The notes under the pieces were generated by a model. The model was not told the origin of the DNA. It ran no database searches and was given only the letters and a program-made list of their open reading frames with translations. Below are positions 56,601 through 58,759 of a DNA stretch of 64,000 nt, piece by piece. The position numbers and the translations under genes were made by a program. Each line of letters starts with the position of its first letter. Position 1 is the first letter of the stretch. Source of the stretch: an uncultured Planctomycetales bacterium (lineage in GTDB: Bacteria; Planctomycetota; Phycisphaerae; UBA1845; PWPN01); contig CAZZFA010000004.1 in assembly GCA_964653435.1 (NCBI GenBank), positions 22,492 through 86,491 of the forward strand, read 5' to 3'.

Positions 56601-58615
56601 CTGACGGCGGCGTCACGCGGTACACCTACGACGCCGTCGGCAATCGCGCGGGGGTCACACTCCCCAACGGAACGGGCACGGAGTACACGTACGACGCCGT
56701 GAACCGGCTGACGAGGCTTGTGAACCGCGGGATCGGCGGCGCGGTACTCTCATCCTGTGAATACACCCTGGGCCCCCGCGGAAACCGCACGCGCGTCGTG
56801 GAGCAGGGCGGGCGCACGGTCGACTACACGTACGACGCGCTCTATCGTCTGATCGAGGAACGCATCAGCGATCCGGCATCCGGTCCGCGGACGTTTGCGT
56901 ACACGTACGACGTCGTGGGCAACCGCCTCACCATGAGCGTTCAGACGCCGACGGGCCGTACCGACGTCGTCTACACCTACGACGAAAACGATCGGCTGCT
57001 CAGCCAGCGCGAAACCGTGACTCTGACACGGTCCGACGGCGGCGCAGGCACCTTCGCCGCCATCGGGCCGCAGCCGTCGCGCGGAAGCTTCGTCGGATTC
57101 CTGCTCTTCGCGGCGGCGACGGCCGCAACGCTCCTCACGCCCTGCGGGCTGCTCCTGCCGGCAGCGGGAGCCGTCGGGCGCGGGGTCCGGCGGCGGCGGT
57201 TCTTCACGATGACCGTCGCACTCTTCCTGGTTCCATGCGTGTTCGTGGGTCCGGAGAATGTCTACGGCCTGCACGTGGAGGCGCTGCTCTACAAGGTCGT
57301 CGGGGCGGCTGCCGTCGGACAGGTCCCGCCGGCGACGACGCTTACGATGACGTACGACGCCAACGGCAACATGGTCGGCCGCACCGACGGCGTGAAGACC
57401 GACGACTACACCTACGACGATGAGAACCGCCTTGTCGCCGCGAACATCCAGCTCGGCACGGAGCCGGGGCCGGTGAGTTACCAGTACGACGTGAACGGCG
57501 TGCGCGTCCGCAAGACCACCGCCGGTGCGACCACGGATTACCTCGTGGACTCGAACCTGCCCTATGCCCAGGTGATCGAGGAGCGGACCGGCGCGGCGAC
57601 GGTGTCGTACGTGTACGGCGACGAGCGGATCAGCATGAAGCGGTCCGGCGCGGGCACCAGCTACTACCACTACGACGGTCAGATGTCGACGCGCGTGCTG
57701 ACCAACGCGGCCGGTGCGGCGACGGACACCTACGCCTACGACGCGTTCGGCGTCGTGCTCAACCGGACCGGCACAACGCCCAACAGCTACCTGTTCACCG
57801 GCGAGGCGTTCGACGCGAATGTGGGCTTCTACTACCTCCGCGCGCGGTACTACAACGCCGACGCGGGGCGCTTCGTCTCGATGGACGACTGGCAGGGCAA
57901 CCTGTACGAGCCGCGAACGCTGCACAAGTACGTGTACTGCCACAACGATCCCATCAACAACCTGGATCCGAGCGGTCATTTGGCCATTCCGACATTGATG
58001 TCGGTCGTGTGCACGATCGCGATCACGGTCATCCTGGGCATGATCTTCTTTGGAATTGTCATCTGGACCGGCACCGCCGCCCTCGCCAATGCGGTGAAGA
58101 CCTACTCGAAGAAGGTTACGCCCGGGACGCTGAAGTGGGTTCTGCGGCGCTACGGCGGCATCTTCGACGATGCGCCATATTACGCCGACCAGTTCGCGTC
58201 CGCTTATGGGACGTCGGCGGCGAGCCTGTGCGACCCGGCCTGCGGTAATTCGGCCGCGAAGACGATCGGGTGGGTCGAGACGCAGGAGGGCAAGGCCATC
58301 AAGGACCTTCTGAGCACGCCGGATTACGTGGGAATGGGCCTTCCGGCGCACTGGTACAAGCGGCACCGCTGGCAGGATGCTTCCGGAAGCTGGCATCTGT
58401 ATCCGTTTACTCCGGAGTACGCGTCGTTCTGGGCCGGCGTGCTCTTCTACCACCAGGTCTGCGTCCTGAAACCGAGAGGCGAGGCGCCGTCGCTTTGGAA
58501 CGACTGGATCGTCGTCCTCGACAACTGGAACAGTGCGCCTGCCCGCGTCTACAACTGGGACGCTGTGGTCCATGCAAGCTGGGCGCGACAGATCGGCCAC
58601 CAGGGAGGCGTTTGA
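44606..58615 (+). CDS. giant secreted multidomain Rhs/YD-repeat protein (4669 aa)
   Basis: A single uninterrupted ORF. The domains, in order, are: signal peptide (MVTMSRMRYRVLVVGGCVLAVVCAHRPETALA); dockerin-like EF pairs (DSDGDVDTADF / DLDGDADVDTADF, 45029-45200); three PKD-like + LamG-like modules; a prenyltransferase/terpene-cyclase-like alpha/alpha toroid (~47570-48560); PKD domains; about 12 cadherin-like Ig repeats (50104-53360); an Rhs plug (GNFTITFTDVSVPLSGLPITVTRTYDS); YD repeats (~54590-57900); the Rhs core end YYLRARYYNADAGRFVSMDD...DPINNLDPSGH (DPSGH at 57965-57979); and a 211-aa C-terminal domain. Confidence 0.9.
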   Translation: MVTMSRMRYRVLVVGGCVLAVVCAHRPETALAQPVANPGGPYTATAATRAEGGWTFSFDGSASTGDPPLVQWEWDFGTDTCEGQWLNTFKWVSQNAYNDGAIILSGAGWGNSFVFSREPVLRQEAATLTLGPSDAAAGRSADFDSDGDVDTADFLVFQGCFSGSNRSPSAAGCEIADLDGDADVDTADFGIFQDAFNGPNRPPKNAKPADSSPAPADSPGNPVPGVFQARVTPDGGHAMWGFKNTSTNYSYTQMPYALYFERGNLHIYEDGSHRGQFATYAPGQTYDVRIELKTAGGARYLWKLPSDADWTLLRDTTYGSGTSLLRGVTVESGTFRMDDVREVFYGKTLTHKVYQGGPAMLTVQDSTGQSQTATFDIAVEPADIVANAGGPYTQTEGDRGADGWTFSFDGSASTSGLEIIQYEWDFGPDTFDGDGPDAGQYFIARAYQTAGQVRISGSGWGNAYLFARRIVTRSGAPILQARVTPDGGQAMWGFKNTSTNYSYTQMPYALYFDRGNLRIYEDGSHRGQVGSYTPGQAYDVRIRLKNTSGAMYFIKPADAADWTLLYDSYYGSQSELLAGATVESGTFVIDEQTRRSYGPTPQCTVAGPMPVTLTVTDLLGRTASQQFSLRITGQPPVADAGGPYSASLGETVTLDGTRSTDDYGIVRYEWDLGTQTFDGSELNGEAWFASRATQDNRLLVTGAGNWGGAYAFSKQIVSRAKDVALECRVLPSGNHAMYGFKNLSGDYSYTQMPYGLYFAGGTLQVCEDGSGRGSVGGYSKTTPYDVRIVLKETAGATYWIRPTGTEVWTCVYDSNYGTGTRFLRGVTVHSGVFETDDFRDVFGGSQVPYIVTRDTTARLTVYDVQRQATTASVPVQLIPMVVCVPWDYDKISGREIPHNAWDGLATRLKAVAYTDTSASNLSVTWDFGDGTAAETGGVSDKRIIETMHSYRGDPGALYTATVTVHDPVHGDLSDTYPVQIHARDLTIEVNVAIDEGLWFLHKRNLGGWWNSNQGYWVSPTASCVHALEINGHTLNRSRSIDPLVEDVAGGLRSILSNLYASSIAAQPYGDPDSNGNGLGIFVNSGRRIYEGGMVMDALAASGVPDRVADVGGSGILGRTFRDIAQDMMDAYAWGQVDSGAARGGWRYEWNSGADNSASQWAAIGFLGIKAAFGLDVAAWVKQENNVWLTYSYNGTGFGYDGPGNGQATTPSGMVQLACDGYEISDPRWQTAEAYIANNWDWFRNNTNIYAWYAFTKAMRVALPAAVVNLRPTGMDWYAHPTKGIARLLLNFQRSDGGWPPDMGWNLGSPFNTAWSVVILTPTLFTRPPVAVAGQDIVWAFDRPLEFDGSKSYHTDPARVLVLYEWDFDGDGTYDYAGADPRTTHTYSFDPNIQYPVIYQAKLRVTDDVGQAATDTRDVTIAEPPHAPFARAGGPYTVSAGVPFHPDGSGSYDIDPTDYITRQEWDFNGANGYNFDQPDAAVDCTAAGCPQVTWVFTAPGTYNIGLRVWDNGVLHPQNRKLASVPDYTTVTVVQNQPPTANPGGPYTVDECKSVRLDGSGSTDPNGDAITYAWDLDGDGEFDDSTEPAPMFTRNQNGTYTVSLIVSDGATQSPPATTQVLVRDTAPTVSLTGPSRLGISQEGTFTATVGSPCDAVVGIQWDWDYDGITFQASGDEGTTQKHGYAAQGRYRVAVRVTDSDGSAAIAVLDVTVEAPVAPRVPAGVRVKVVVGQREYDNARKVHRGQFSLVSVYDLPITGPVALAFDNIKPDTVKLLNSQGTVRDPATGRDLPYVDFSDLLAGGKLAPGATLGPKWVEFEDPGRVAFTFDAMAYIFNAPPKFTSTPVLTADEGQRYRYEAKAVDDDGDPITFALRDTNGTPPPEGMTVHPLAGIVDWVPSQTAAGAHDVTLVAIDGFAGGEGTQTFRITVGAVDAPPVITSAPPTTATVNVAYQYQVVAYDPDGGAVTFTLPTAPAGMTIDAAGGMIQWAAPVVGSHTVKVVVTDVRNQTAAQEYVLTVISCGQPPEITSQPPTTATEGEPYTYAVVATPSGAVLSWSLPVAPDGMTIDAAGRISWTPSYTSHGMRTVKVVAAGEPGCQAEQIFQINVADVNAPPRIVSSPIESAAEGRPYRYNVQAVDPDGDTIAFSLAAAPAGMSIQPVAGIVEWMPSQTAASDSPYTVTIEAVDPSGAVGRQTFQIAVTAEDLGPQITSTPNYLAVEGQPYEYPVLAIDPDNDPLTYALTEAPAGMTITAAGVVQWMPGPRAAQSGPYAVRIVVSDQAGHSATQAYELVVRKSNVPPEITSTPVTVAREGDIYRYPVTATDADGDVLKYSLRVAPGGMSIHPTAGAIDWLVPQTAAANNPTRVTVAVSDGAAAAEQSFEIIVEAVNVAPMIFSTPVTRAAVGAVYQYDVEANDVDGDIVTYSLSQAPDGMTIDAVTGVITWQPAVGQDGLQSVTVAAADPANLTDEQTFVIEVAPCPDAPEFTSEPKTTASPGVAYRYEVKARVKAGSITYALTTAPDGMSMDAQGVITWTPTQAQMGTHDVVVVATRDAVCPSQQAWQVEVKECELAVSYPLPPLVPGQTAQFAPQLTSNCGPLTFELASGPAGMKVNSATGVITWTPALGPFAAEVHVVDAWGTTATATFSGEVVPQTPPRITSVPPMTAKVNELYSYQVVAVDDDGDAIEFAFVKGPAGMAMDPTTHLVTWTPDDAAIGTHPVEIRVTDARGASMTQSFGVTVSLTGTNRAPEITSTPPMTAYADADYTYAVVASDPDGDPLTYSLSTAPPGMTIDAGNGLIAWHPTGADLGSYAVTIRVDDGGGWATQSFLLEVRVNTPPTITSTAVTKAIVGLAYRYDVKAVDPDEPQLAYALAQSPAGMAIDAQTGAITWTPAADQVGDQAVLVSVKDSRQAEATQAYIVTVYADPSADLLPPEVAITANPRVVDPGEPVTITVTATDDFGIASVSLTVNDTAVVLDPAGRAQYTPPAPGPYIARAVATDLTGKMRTATTDFGARAAGDAIPPSVAITSPEIDAELKAPTDFVGTASDANLYRYALAYRPIGESEWIEFATGYSSVTAGILGRLDTTRMRNGLYDIRLRAEDTNGNVNEVVTACAVAGQMKVGNFTITFTDVSVPLSGLPITVTRTYDSRDKSVGDFGVGWRIELSSLTVTENSVAGKDWQQQMIPGFAGMNRYVLTPIRPKVVSVTWPDGRIERFAMSVSPSQQMLVPIAFFDRIVFTPIPPATSRLDVLGDTSGYYDGGAPGVGDIYLYSDSTAMDPANYRLTAKDGTTYTFVGNANAPTARLQSLTEPNGNSLQITLNGIVHSSGKSVTFERDDRKRITSITDPRGGTLRFTYDDRGDLVAAENANGEVTRYTYDGNHGLVEIIDPRGVPVARNEYDDDGRLVATIDADGRRTEFQHDLNNRQEVVKDRNGNVTVNEYDDAGNLVATTDALGQRTTCTYDDRGNKLTETDPLGHTVTQTYDAANNVLSRTDALGNRTEFTYDAAGRTLTKRDPMGNVTRNTYDARGNLLSVTEPGDRVTTYTYDAAGRMTSETDPLGRTTTYEYDGAGNLVRETDPLGHAVTYTYDANGNRLTRTTTRTTPAGPETLTTTFVYDANNRLVKTIDPAGHETRIEYTPTGQKAADIDVLGRRTAYEYDERGHLVRTLYADGTEERTTYDPEGRKLTTTDRAGRTTTYTYDKVGRLVRTTWVDGTFIESEYDAAGRVVRETDERGNATRYAYDAAGRRISVTDALGGTAAYEYDANGNRIRMTDARGNVTRYEYDARRQLVRTTFADGTSTAVTYDAAGQKVAETDQAGRVTRFAYDANGRLLSVTDALGGVTRYAWDEVGNQISQTDAAGRITQFEYDRLGRRTRRILPNGAAEVMTYDAAGRMIARTDFAGRTTTFEYDLADRLVRKNLPSGASKVFTWTPDGLRKTAVDGRGVVTYEYDQRARLVRQTEPDGRQIAYAYDARGNRTAVTSPSGTTTCTYDALNRLETVTDPDGGVTRYTYDAVGNRAGVTLPNGTGTEYTYDAVNRLTRLVNRGIGGAVLSSCEYTLGPRGNRTRVVEQGGRTVDYTYDALYRLIEERISDPASGPRTFAYTYDVVGNRLTMSVQTPTGRTDVVYTYDENDRLLSQRETVTLTRSDGGAGTFAAIGPQPSRGSFVGFLLFAAATAATLLTPCGLLLPAAGAVGRGVRRRRFFTMTVALFLVPCVFVGPENVYGLHVEALLYKVVGAAAVGQVPPATTLTMTYDANGNMVGRTDGVKTDDYTYDDENRLVAANIQLGTEPGPVSYQYDVNGVRVRKTTAGATTDYLVDSNLPYAQVIEERTGAATVSYVYGDERISMKRSGAGTSYYHYDGQMSTRVLTNAAGAATDTYAYDAFGVVLNRTGTTPNSYLFTGEAFDANVGFYYLRARYYNADAGRFVSMDDWQGNLYEPRTLHKYVYCHNDPINNLDPSGHLAIPTLMSVVCTIAITVILGMIFFGIVIWTGTAALANAVKTYSKKVTPGTLKWVLRRYGGIFDDAPYYADQFASAYGTSAASLCDPACGNSAAKTIGWVETQEGKAIKDLLSTPDYVGMGLPAHWYKRHRWQDASGSWHLYPFTPEYASFWAGVLFYHQVCVLKPRGEAPSLWNDWIVVLDNWNSAPARVYNWDAVVHASWARQIGHQGGV
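45287..45433 (+). repeat. intragenic repeat copy 1 (147 nt)
   Basis: 139/147 identical to 46043-46189 by hand alignment, with only 1 mismatch in the first 86 nt. The offset is 756 nt, which is in frame. Confidence 0.9.
46043..46189 (+). repeat. intragenic repeat copy 2 (147 nt)
   Basis: See copy 1. It encodes QARVTPDGGQAMWGFKNTSTNYSYTQMPYALYFDRGNLRIYEDGSHRGQ. Confidence 0.9.
50104..53360 (+). repeat. about 12 tandem ~90-95-aa cadherin-like / putative Ig (He_PIG-like) domain repeats within the giant gene
   Basis: The recurrent pattern is PP.ITS.P...A..G..Y.Y.V.A.D.DGD.LTYSL...P.GM.ID...G.I.W.P. I counted 12 unit starts (PPKFTST, PPVITSA, PPEITSQ, PPRIVSS, GPQITST, PPEITST, APMIFST, APEFTSE, one degenerate, PPRITSV, APEITST, PPTITST). 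Confidence 0.8.
57980..58612 (+). other. C-terminal 211-aa domain following the Rhs DPxGH motif (putative polymorphic-toxin tip, unrecognised family, begins with a TM helix)
   Basis: It reads LAIPTLMSVVCTIAITVILGMIFFGIVIWTGTAALANAV...KKVTPGTLKWVLRRYGG...HWYKRHRWQDASGSWHLYPF...WARQIGHQGGV. No motif that I recognise. Confidence 0.6.

Positions 58616-58759: not shown

Follow-up and report, generated by a model that had tools for sequence, protein, structure and literature searches.

An orphan tip with a hydrophobic helix and a Cys-His-Asp domain, lacking a tip-specific immunity gene, on a giant planctomycete RHS protein

This study concerns the C-terminal tip of a giant RHS protein encoded on a contig of an uncultured Planctomycetales bacterium (CAZZFA010000004.1), within a stretch of 64,000 nt with a G+C content of 65.6% that was analysed as a whole; we call this stretch the window and give all coordinates in its numbering unless another locus is named. 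The tip consists of the 211 amino acids (aa 4459-4669, 57980..58612) that directly follow the DPSGH motif closing the Rhs core. It represents a genuinely orphan family, in which a hydrophobic helix of transmembrane (TM) grade precedes a 172-aa domain with invariant Cys, His and Asp residues. As judged by comparison of loci, a tip-specific immunity gene is absent, both in the window and across at least five tip types, and the conserved gene that follows the tip appears to be an accessory linked to the body of the giant protein, not a tip-specific immunity gene. We lean towards reading the tip as an RHS-encapsulated, membrane-anchored cysteine-enzyme effector that is not aimed at kin, a view in which our confidence stays slightly behind our doubt.

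The giant protein and its tip

The features of the giant gene, all on the forward strand, are as follows.

44606..58615: giant RHS gene, open for 4,669 codons, with a G+C content at third codon positions (GC3) of 0.87
57083..57250: hydrophobic hairpin within the RHS shell (aa ~4160-4215), two hydrophobic helices either side of GRGVRRRR
57737..57979: Rhs-associated core domain ending in DPSGH (TIGR03696, E=2.2e-19, 69.7 bits against a cutoff of 32.5)
57965..57979: DPSGH motif, presumed aspartyl autocleavage site, with D-P-S-G invariant among homologues
57980..58096: tip segment 1, hydrophobic over 39 aa and of TM-helix grade, helical in both AlphaFold2 runs
58097..58612: tip segment 2, the 172-aa orphan domain with invariant Cys, His and Asp and an invariant C-terminal I-G-x-Q-G-G-x

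Canonical RHS repeats and a core with its DPSGH motif are directly visible in this protein. From the N-terminus its parts run from a Sec-type signal peptide (MVTMSRMRYRVLVVGGCVLAVVCAHRPETALA followed directly by QP, a signal-peptide-like sequence) through three modules of ~300 aa, Ig-like repeats of the PKD, He_PIG, Big_9 and cadherin-like kinds that span ~3,000 aa, DUF6531, the RHS shell and the Rhs core to the tip. The repeats are matched by RHS_repeat PF05593 in 20 stretches (E=3e-144, Pfam) and by TIGR01643 (E=2e-54, NCBIfam), and both Asp positions of the core can be read in the sequence, in MDDW and LDPSGH. Pfam detects neither an NHL nor a TTR domain along the 4,669 aa, and the precomputed domain matches of homologues are limited to TEN_YD-shell. 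The hairpin within the shell is kept in the homologues at loci L006, L001, L016 and L019 and is missing from that at L018.

The best 19-mer of the hydrophobic stretch (VCTIAITVILGMIFFGIVI) has a summed insertion free energy (dG) of -3.3 kcal/mol on the Hessa biological hydrophobicity scale; this is the minimum of the entire protein, for which the median is +19. The 172-aa domain behind it contains 11 Trp, 11 Tyr and 6 His residues, together 16% of the domain. Since GC3 holds at 0.82-0.84 in the frame of the gene, the tip is coding and compositionally native. No significant match to it was obtained in Pfam, NCBIfam, PDB sequences (with the single sequence and with a profile), PADLOC or PHROGs. 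Candidate assignments to a known toxin family by sequence amounted to TM-driven noise (LlsX, MaAIMP_sms and mS34, E>0.1), and none of the seven members of the tip family described below matched a Pfam model at E<=10, including Tox-PL*, Peptidase_C39/C70/C93, NlpC_P60 and Transglut_core. Nor did the PDB sequence search with the tip bring up any papain-like or transglutaminase-like protein. The initial annotation, made from the letters of the window, had described an unrecognised 211-aa domain behind DPSGH that begins hydrophobic and continues rich in Trp, His and Tyr; its coordinates agree with ours, the hydrophobicity and residue counts bear out its description, and the match to a known toxin family that it named as evidence to the contrary did not turn up in any family model.

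Inheritance of the tip and its exchange among related bodies

Relatives of the tip, sought in ~15 billion proteins overall, are extremely few. A word-index search of 5.8 billion clusters with the tip alone returned the tip itself only, in a database copy annotated as belonging to a Phycisphaerae metagenome-assembled genome. Phmmer, run exhaustively over 1.84 billion representatives, gave two further sequences (E=5e-12 and 4e-11) and a profile search two more. A scan of GTDB added the close relatives L006 and L007, at 86% and 79% identity, and a scan of metagenomes one locus, L008, whose tip is identical to P0005; the nearest genome matches are metagenome-assembled genomes labelled "uncultured Planctomycetales". 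The family comprises seven distinct sequences in two clades, clade A with the window, L006 and L007, and clade B with P0002 to P0005, which are 32-37% identical to the window tip. All members are fused to homologous giant RHS bodies, with the same order of domains wherever the upstream sequence suffices; P0004 and P0005 start inside the Rhs core at the end of a contig.

Tip and body diverge at similar pace between the window and L006, with 86.6% identity in the tip domain and ~88% in the body, and with P0003 the tip shares 34% and the RHS shell 52% of its residues (50-52% over the body). The ratio of nonsynonymous to synonymous substitution rates (dN/dS) against L006 comes to 0.165 in the tip domain and to 0.10-0.17 in segments of the body, and that of the whole tip lies at 0.19-0.22 in three pairwise comparisons. 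By these identities and dN/dS values the tip has been co-inherited vertically with the body, under purifying selection.

At a comparable depth of divergence, replacement of the tip is directly visible. The RHS bodies at L019 (55-58% identical to the window body), L016 (46-50%) and L018 (46-48%) bracket that of P0003 in their relatedness to the window, and at least five unrelated tip types sit on bodies of this range, 46-58% identical to that of the window. The L019 tip consists of TM helices and a helical domain, and the cut genes of L014 and L015 end in the same type; L016 and L022 carry a multi-TM domain; and the tips of L018, L017 and the giant gene of L020 are other globular domains. Several tips of the clade (L016, L022 and L012) are purely multi-TM. 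The hidden Markov model (HMM) of the tip family scores at most ~4 bits on the C-termini of L016-L019, L020 and L022 and does not detect them. By eye, ACGD and ACYDAA…H…D-like motifs suggest that the L017 and L018 tips might be divergent members, but their HMM bit scores are negative, and we therefore counted them as different tips. A hydrophobic helix right behind DPxG opens nearly all tips of the clade, exceptions such as that of L018 being weakly hydrophobic.

Taken at different depths, then, the tip is both conserved, within two sub-lineages, and polymorphic. The initial annotation had suggested a survey of homologous Rhs loci for alternative tips, which were found in at least five types, and had treated conservation of the tip as an argument against a toxin; that argument holds in part, the tip being co-inherited down to ~50% body identity while equally related bodies bear unrelated tips.

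A further C-terminal unit stands apart from these fused tips. At L020:2141..3421 and L021:1293..2573, both on the minus strand, a stand-alone 426-aa RHS C-terminal cassette, made of an Rhs core, DPSGL and a tip with an Aspzincin_M35 metallopeptidase, comes right behind a further giant RHS gene and is convergent with a gene of the partner family treated next; no small immunity gene is present at the cassette at either locus.

The downstream partner gene and the missing immunity gene

Only one gene follows the giant gene closely, and we refer to it as the partner.

58760..59449, forward strand: partner gene, encoding a signal peptide, a ~170-aa beta-rich domain and a PEP-CTERM-like anchor

The beta-rich domain follows the pattern NxxFxxGLxGWT…ALPDAFTARLLDPVTL…DYFYHDARG, and the C-terminus, IPEP-LTVGLVAAALAAL-YRYGRR, shows in the alignment the PEP, TM and basic-cluster arrangement. 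PEP-CTERM models match it below threshold (PF07589 at E=0.015 in four of five members, NCBIfam at E ~1e-3), so that of the secreted PEP-CTERM protein announced in the initial annotation the signal peptide and the layout of the C-terminus stand, with the family models short of their thresholds. The start of translation is ambiguous (58676..58804) and may be the GTG at 58760, at the signal peptide, or the in-frame ATG at 58676 used in the database entry P0010; the latter would add an N-terminal extension of 28 aa, which is ~50% conserved in L006. Because one Cys of the signal peptide is invariant throughout the family, the partner may be a lipoprotein.

The partner directly follows the RHS gene in L006 (86% identity), in L003, L004, L005 and L008 (45-50%) and in L002, where the contig ends within it. 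A profile search gave ~18 members, and every one whose context was fetched sits at a giant-RHS locus. It follows the RHS genes of L016 and L022 with their multi-TM tips, those of L018 and L019, and the L019-type tails of L014 and L015; at L017 it lies two genes past the tip, and at L020 and L021 it is convergent to the RHS cluster. In all, the downstream gene is of this one family at 12 or more loci, whatever the tip type. Its identity to the window partner is 60-64% in L014, L018 and L019, which have other tips, as against 45-50% in clade B, whose tip is of the same family as that of the window; as identity does not group by tip type, the partner tracks something other than the tip. In L007 it is cut to ~44 residues and in L001 it is absent, and in both the tip is intact with all its invariant residues. 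In the first of these regions (L007:1208..1468) the remnant is overlapped by a convergent TPR/PMT-like gene, and in the second (L001:9781..11207) a convergent GDSL-lipase-like gene stands in place of the partner.

The idea that the partner is a tip-specific immunity protein was rejected on these grounds, namely that it accompanies at least five tip types and that its identity does not group with them. Since it goes with the RHS gene whatever the tip, and is truncated or absent at two loci that bear the tip, it appears to be a body-linked accessory, conserved alongside the giant RHS proteins of this clade and not an irrelevant neighbour. The initial annotation had thought it an unlikely immunity factor because it is secreted; the comparative data do oppose that role, but secretion alone does not exclude it, because a toxin acting at the membrane or in the periplasm would need an exported immunity protein.

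Other places where an immunity gene might lie were equally empty. The spacer between the tip gene and the GTG at 58760 is 144 nt long and contains no independent open reading frame (ORF) with coding signal, much as the initial annotation had it, and across loci the spacers between RHS gene and partner (58-606 nt) share no conserved ORF. A small immunity ORF in this interval was considered and rejected, the conservation in clade B being of the DNA in all frames and confined to ~100 nt before the partner start (L002:1540..1639, L003:1035..1133, L005:1270..1369 and L008:1305..1403; rest of the spacer 232-606 nt); this element may be the promoter or 5' untranslated region of the partner gene. Beyond the partner, 59450..60058 holds no candidate immunity ORF but a tRNA-Arg alone, with gmhA and hldE further on, on the other strand. 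Elsewhere in the window there is no orphan tip, no immunity cassette, for which the initial annotation had proposed a look at homologous loci, and no second copy of the partner. Its statement that no cognate immunity gene adjoins the tip is thus strengthened by the constancy of the neighbouring family across tip types and by spacers free of ORFs: no gene linked to the tip is seen that could serve as one.

The fold of the 172-aa domain

Thirty-seven positions are invariant across the seven tip sequences, with the motifs Y-G-G, A-C-G-x-x-A-A, H-Q, L-D-x-W-x-x-A-P and the C-terminal I-G-x-Q-G-G-x, and with three residues, each present in all seven sequences and encoded on the forward strand, that might form a catalytic set.

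58241-58243: invariant Cys4546 (C49 of the domain)
58451-58453: invariant His4616 (H119 of the domain)
58520-58522: invariant Asp4639 (D142 of the domain)

The distances from Cys to His and from His to Asp are 70 and 23 residues. AlphaFold2 models of the full tip (mean predicted local distance difference test, pLDDT, of 54) and of the domain alone (59.7, with a predicted template modelling score, pTM, of 0.64) were of low confidence; in both, a long helix has the Cys in its first turn, a strand begins with the His, and the Asp follows closely on the next strand. Because this placement is the layout of papain-like enzymes, a papain-like Cys-His-Asp enzyme is our leading assignment for the domain, and an unproven one. 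Among the 50 best Foldseek matches in the PDB, 42 were papain-like or transglutaminase-like cysteine proteases, none of them significant; they include LapG, the C39 domains of PCAT1 and ComA, AvrRpt2, a papain-like toxin/immunity pair, USP, vasohibin and AvrPphB, and the papain-like theme returned with the second AlphaFold2 model. This was the structural comparison proposed in the initial annotation, in which no motif known for the domain had been noticed; it is correct that no sequence family claims the domain, but with its invariant Cys, His and Asp and its papain-compatible topology the domain is probably not devoid of a known fold.

We note that the last seven residues of the tip, IGHQGGV (58592..58612), contain the I-G-x-Q-G-G-x motif that is invariant in seven of seven sequences. 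Gly-Gly is the site behind which peptidases of the C39 family cut and also the terminus of ubiquitin-like proteins; the tip, a putative papain-like domain, itself ends in Gly-Gly plus one residue.

What the tip might do

Let us suppose that the giant protein is a Sec-signal RHS/YD-shell surface protein of the WapA or bacterial teneurin-like polymorphic toxin kind. Then the Rhs aspartyl autoprotease would be expected, from its intact motif, to cut after DPSGH, leaving the 211-aa tip to be carried in the shell. Upon release, the N-terminal hydrophobic helix might insert into and anchor the tip in a target membrane, where the Cys-His-Asp domain, whose fold is most likely a minimal papain-like one, would cleave or modify a protein or peptide bond. 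The targets would be non-kin cells, possibly eukaryotic ones, with producer and kin unharmed. Because at least five tip types have been exchanged without an immunity gene and the tip is under purifying selection, the effector is most likely harmless to its producer and kin, and the partner, as a body-linked accessory, might serve for example in surface docking or assembly of the giant protein and not as an antidote. The sulfatases and pectate lyase encoded elsewhere in the window are consistent with a polysaccharide-feeding bacterium, living for example on algae, which would provide a context for such targets.

Several observations sit poorly with this scenario. Unlike the fast-swapping tips of antibacterial Rhs toxins, this one is stable over deep divergence. 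The structural matches reach a best E-value of 0.8-1.1 over aligned cores of ~50-65 columns in models with pLDDT of 54-60, and no papain-family sequence model matches any tip member even at E<=10. No genes for a secretion apparatus lie nearby. A helix with a dG of -3.3 would normally be a stop-transfer anchor in the producer's own Sec export, and in clade A its C-terminal flank is rich in Lys and Arg, as in an anchor with N-terminus out and C-terminus in. Taken at face value, these last two points would make the helix the producer's own membrane anchor, with the ectodomain outside, the Cys-His-Asp domain in the producer cytoplasm and no toxin at all; autocleavage at DPSGH would split the ectodomain from a membrane-anchored intracellular enzyme, in the manner of a receptor or a built-in release module, which would be a bacterial parallel to the domestication of the YD-shell in teneurins. 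In favour of such an anchor, the tip helix exceeds every other part of the giant protein in hydrophobicity; the clade A flanks have three Lys/Arg on the C-side against none on the N-side; the internal hairpin with its RRRR turn completes a self-consistent topology of three TM helices that obeys the positive-inside rule; no tip type has an immunity gene; the tip is vertically inherited under purifying selection; and TM helices open nearly every tip of the clade. On the other hand, homologous bodies exchange unrelated tips, as is characteristic of polymorphic toxins; a Sec-signal teneurin-like RHS protein encapsulates a C-terminal domain (CTD) that bears a TM region and is toxic (PMC13018210); and with an anchor in the inner membrane the ectodomain of 4,100 aa would be confined to the periplasm of a diderm. 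The Lys/Arg bias is moreover missing in clade B; we considered whether the positive-inside rule proves the tip to be cytoplasmic and, since it holds in clade A and fails in clade B, use it as a weak argument only. On balance an anchor of this kind, the chief alternative to our reading, seems to us rather unlikely. Its extension to the whole clade of giant planctomycete RHS proteins, which we consider rather improbable, would make them autoproteolytic surface receptors or adhesins and not weapons: the RHS aspartyl protease would cut immediately external to a genuine membrane anchor, a variable module inside the cell, here the papain-like enzyme, would stay non-covalently coupled to the 4,100-aa ectodomain and the PEP-CTERM partner, and the polymorphic tips would be alternative signalling or anchoring outputs, a prokaryotic analogue of the logic of teneurins and adhesion GPCRs.

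Two further accounts retain a weapon and change the role of one of its parts. The partner might be a generic, tip-independent factor of self-protection that blocks docking to, or discharge into, sister cells, making a conventional tip-specific immunity gene unnecessary. It is found at RHS loci whatever the tip, its predicted export and anchoring at membrane or surface would put it in the right compartment against membrane-acting cargo, and it is better conserved than the tip (45-50% versus 32-37%). The loci L007, with ~44 residues of partner, and L001, with none, keep intact tips all the same, two genes intervene at L017 and the partner is convergent at L020 and L021; we know of no precedent for tip-independent immunity, and we judge this role decidedly unlikely. 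A very slim prospect, in our estimate, is that the hydrophobic helix is itself the active part, perturbing membranes or forming pores as do Tse5-CT, BiTLP-CTD and Tox-WTIP, with the 172-aa domain as a non-catalytic module for oligomerisation or targeting whose Cys, His and Asp are structural. N-terminal hydrophobic helices are indeed the one feature common to most tips of the clade, several tips are purely multi-TM (L016, L022, L012), experimental precedents exist, and the evidence for a peptidase fold is statistically non-significant. But a single TM helix is little for a pore, and the 172-aa domain is under purifying selection as strong as that of the body, with 37 invariant positions that include the ordered Cys/His/Asp set. 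Of the three options offered in the initial annotation, a membrane-acting toxin, a toxin aimed at non-kin and a non-toxic function, none is fully separated from the others by the data.

If the membrane-anchored, non-kin effector we favour is the correct reading, the tip would be a new and extremely rare family of RHS cargo that combines a TM anchor with a putative cysteine enzyme, within a clade whose giant, Sec-exported RHS proteins swap membrane-embedded tips, never with immunity genes, and keep one constant PEP-CTERM partner. Such a clade would break the rule of a toxin tip plus cognate immunity that is used in annotating Rhs loci, and would imply either non-kin targets, possibly algal or other eukaryotic ones, or a non-toxic bacterial use of the autoproteolytic RHS shell. 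The compact, tRNA-flanked module of two genes would also lend itself to transfer into a test host.

Comparison with known systems

The overall plan of the giant protein, with signal peptide, a surface region of Ig-like or adhesive kind at the N-terminus, an RHS shell with core and autocleavage motif and a small polymorphic CTD, is that of WapA-type toxins and of teneurin-like proteins (TLPs). In a Sec-signal teneurin-like RHS protein the encapsulated CTD, with a predicted TM region, permeabilises cells only from the periplasm (PMC13018210), and the window tip resembles the CTD of BiTLP, which is hydrophobic, has a predicted TM region and acts on the membrane from outside. Almost all TLP genes have a highly diverse immunity gene immediately downstream (PMC13018210), in contrast to the window, where the downstream gene belongs to a family conserved across tip types. 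Unlike TLPs, too, the window protein has no NHL or TTR domain detected by Pfam, and has 4,669 aa, ~3,000 aa of Ig-like repeats and a hairpin in the shell.

Papain-like peptidase tips of RHS proteins have been catalogued, mostly without an immunity partner, and toxins lacking immunity genes have been read as aimed at eukaryotic hosts (PMC3482391); a papain-like interbacterial toxin, Cpe1, is also on record (PMC12136450). With Cpe1 and with Tox-PL1, Tox-PL-2, Tox-PL3, Tox-PLC39, Tox-NLPC/P60 and Tox-TGase (Zhang et al. 2012, PMC3482391) the window tip shares its C-terminal place after RHS, the ordered Cys…His…Asp, a small, here predicted, alpha+beta domain and, as for most of these families, the lack of an identified immunity partner. 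It differs from them in matching no such model, nor Peptidase_C39, C70 or C93, and in having a TM helix before the domain and an invariant QGG-x end, and its structural matches fall short of statistical significance. A minimal papain-like or transglutaminase-like core with Cys-His-Asp, as predicted here, is also that of LapG/BTLCP and of the C39 domains of PCAT1 and ComA, which cleave after Gly-Gly where the window tip ends in Gly-Gly-x. The spacings of ~79 and ~16 residues from Cys to His and from His to Asp in C39 domains resemble the 70 and 23 of the tip, and LapG processes a giant adhesin. These likenesses come with E-values of 1-5, TM-scores of ~0.2, cores of 50-65 columns, no sequence similarity and another cellular context.

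For a hydrophobic tip in an Rhs shell there is a precedent in Pseudomonas aeruginosa, whose pore-forming Tse5-CT is carried inside such a shell (PMC10684867). The window tip would share with Tse5, and with the two-TM RHS tip Tox-WTIP, the use of hydrophobic, membrane-inserting cargo released after aspartyl autocleavage. Tse5 is delivered by a type VI secretion system (T6SS) and has its cognate tsi5, in contrast to the window protein with its Sec signal, no T6SS genes and no immunity gene; behind the window helix there is, in addition, a globular domain. The finding hence belongs to a known kind, RHS proteins with polymorphic cargo, hydrophobic or peptidase-type tips and variants without immunity. 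What is new is the cargo family of TM helix plus Cys/His/Asp domain, the exchange of tips throughout a clade without immunity genes, the conserved PEP-CTERM partner and the tRNA-bounded module of two genes.

The tRNA-bounded segment and its surroundings

Two features on the minus strand bound the giant gene and its partner.

43669..43705, minus strand: direct repeat of the 3' end of tRNA-Arg, exact over 26 nt, 36/37 nt with extension
59792..59867, minus strand: tRNA-Arg(CCT), its 3' end facing the partner gene, with 343 bp of non-coding sequence between

Chance matches to the repeated tRNA end numbered 0 in 100 shuffles. The left repeat, within the 1.3-kb leader that precedes the giant gene, forms an att-like boundary of the segment; tRNA prediction does not call it, and its folding is not that of a tRNA. 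The 16.1-kb segment between the repeats contains the giant gene and the partner and no other ORF with coding signal, so none for an integrase; its GC and tetranucleotide usage lie within the range of the flanks, and the search for a compositional signature of a foreign island came out empty. By its layout the segment looks like an old integration at a tRNA site, now without integrase. At L016:11232..11305, where the body is ~50% identical and the tip different, a tRNA-Arg(CCT) is found ~540 bp past the partner, on the same strand as the RHS gene.

Housekeeping genes make up the flanks, namely sdhCAB on the upstream side, gmhA and hldE on the downstream side, and MutS. None of the window genes that were scanned belongs to T6SS or type II secretion or encodes an exosortase. 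A block at 19585..31085 encodes four sulfatases, a periplasmic pectate lyase, a BD-FAE esterase and a GH20-like protein, and its gene content suggests a degrader of sulfated polysaccharides such as algal ones.

Within the giant protein, the first half of the hairpin in the RHS shell resembles a C-terminal sorting signal (TM helix plus Arg cluster) and the second half a signal peptide. The ~300-aa module near the N-terminus (44700..47700, aa ~35-1000) occurs in three tandem copies of the pattern …ANPGGPYT…WTFSFDGSAS…WEWDFG…QARVTPDGG.AMWGFKN…, the middle of each copy having no Pfam match, and it is followed at aa ~1000-1400 by a Trp-rich region reminiscent of prenyltransferase or alpha-alpha-toroid repeats.

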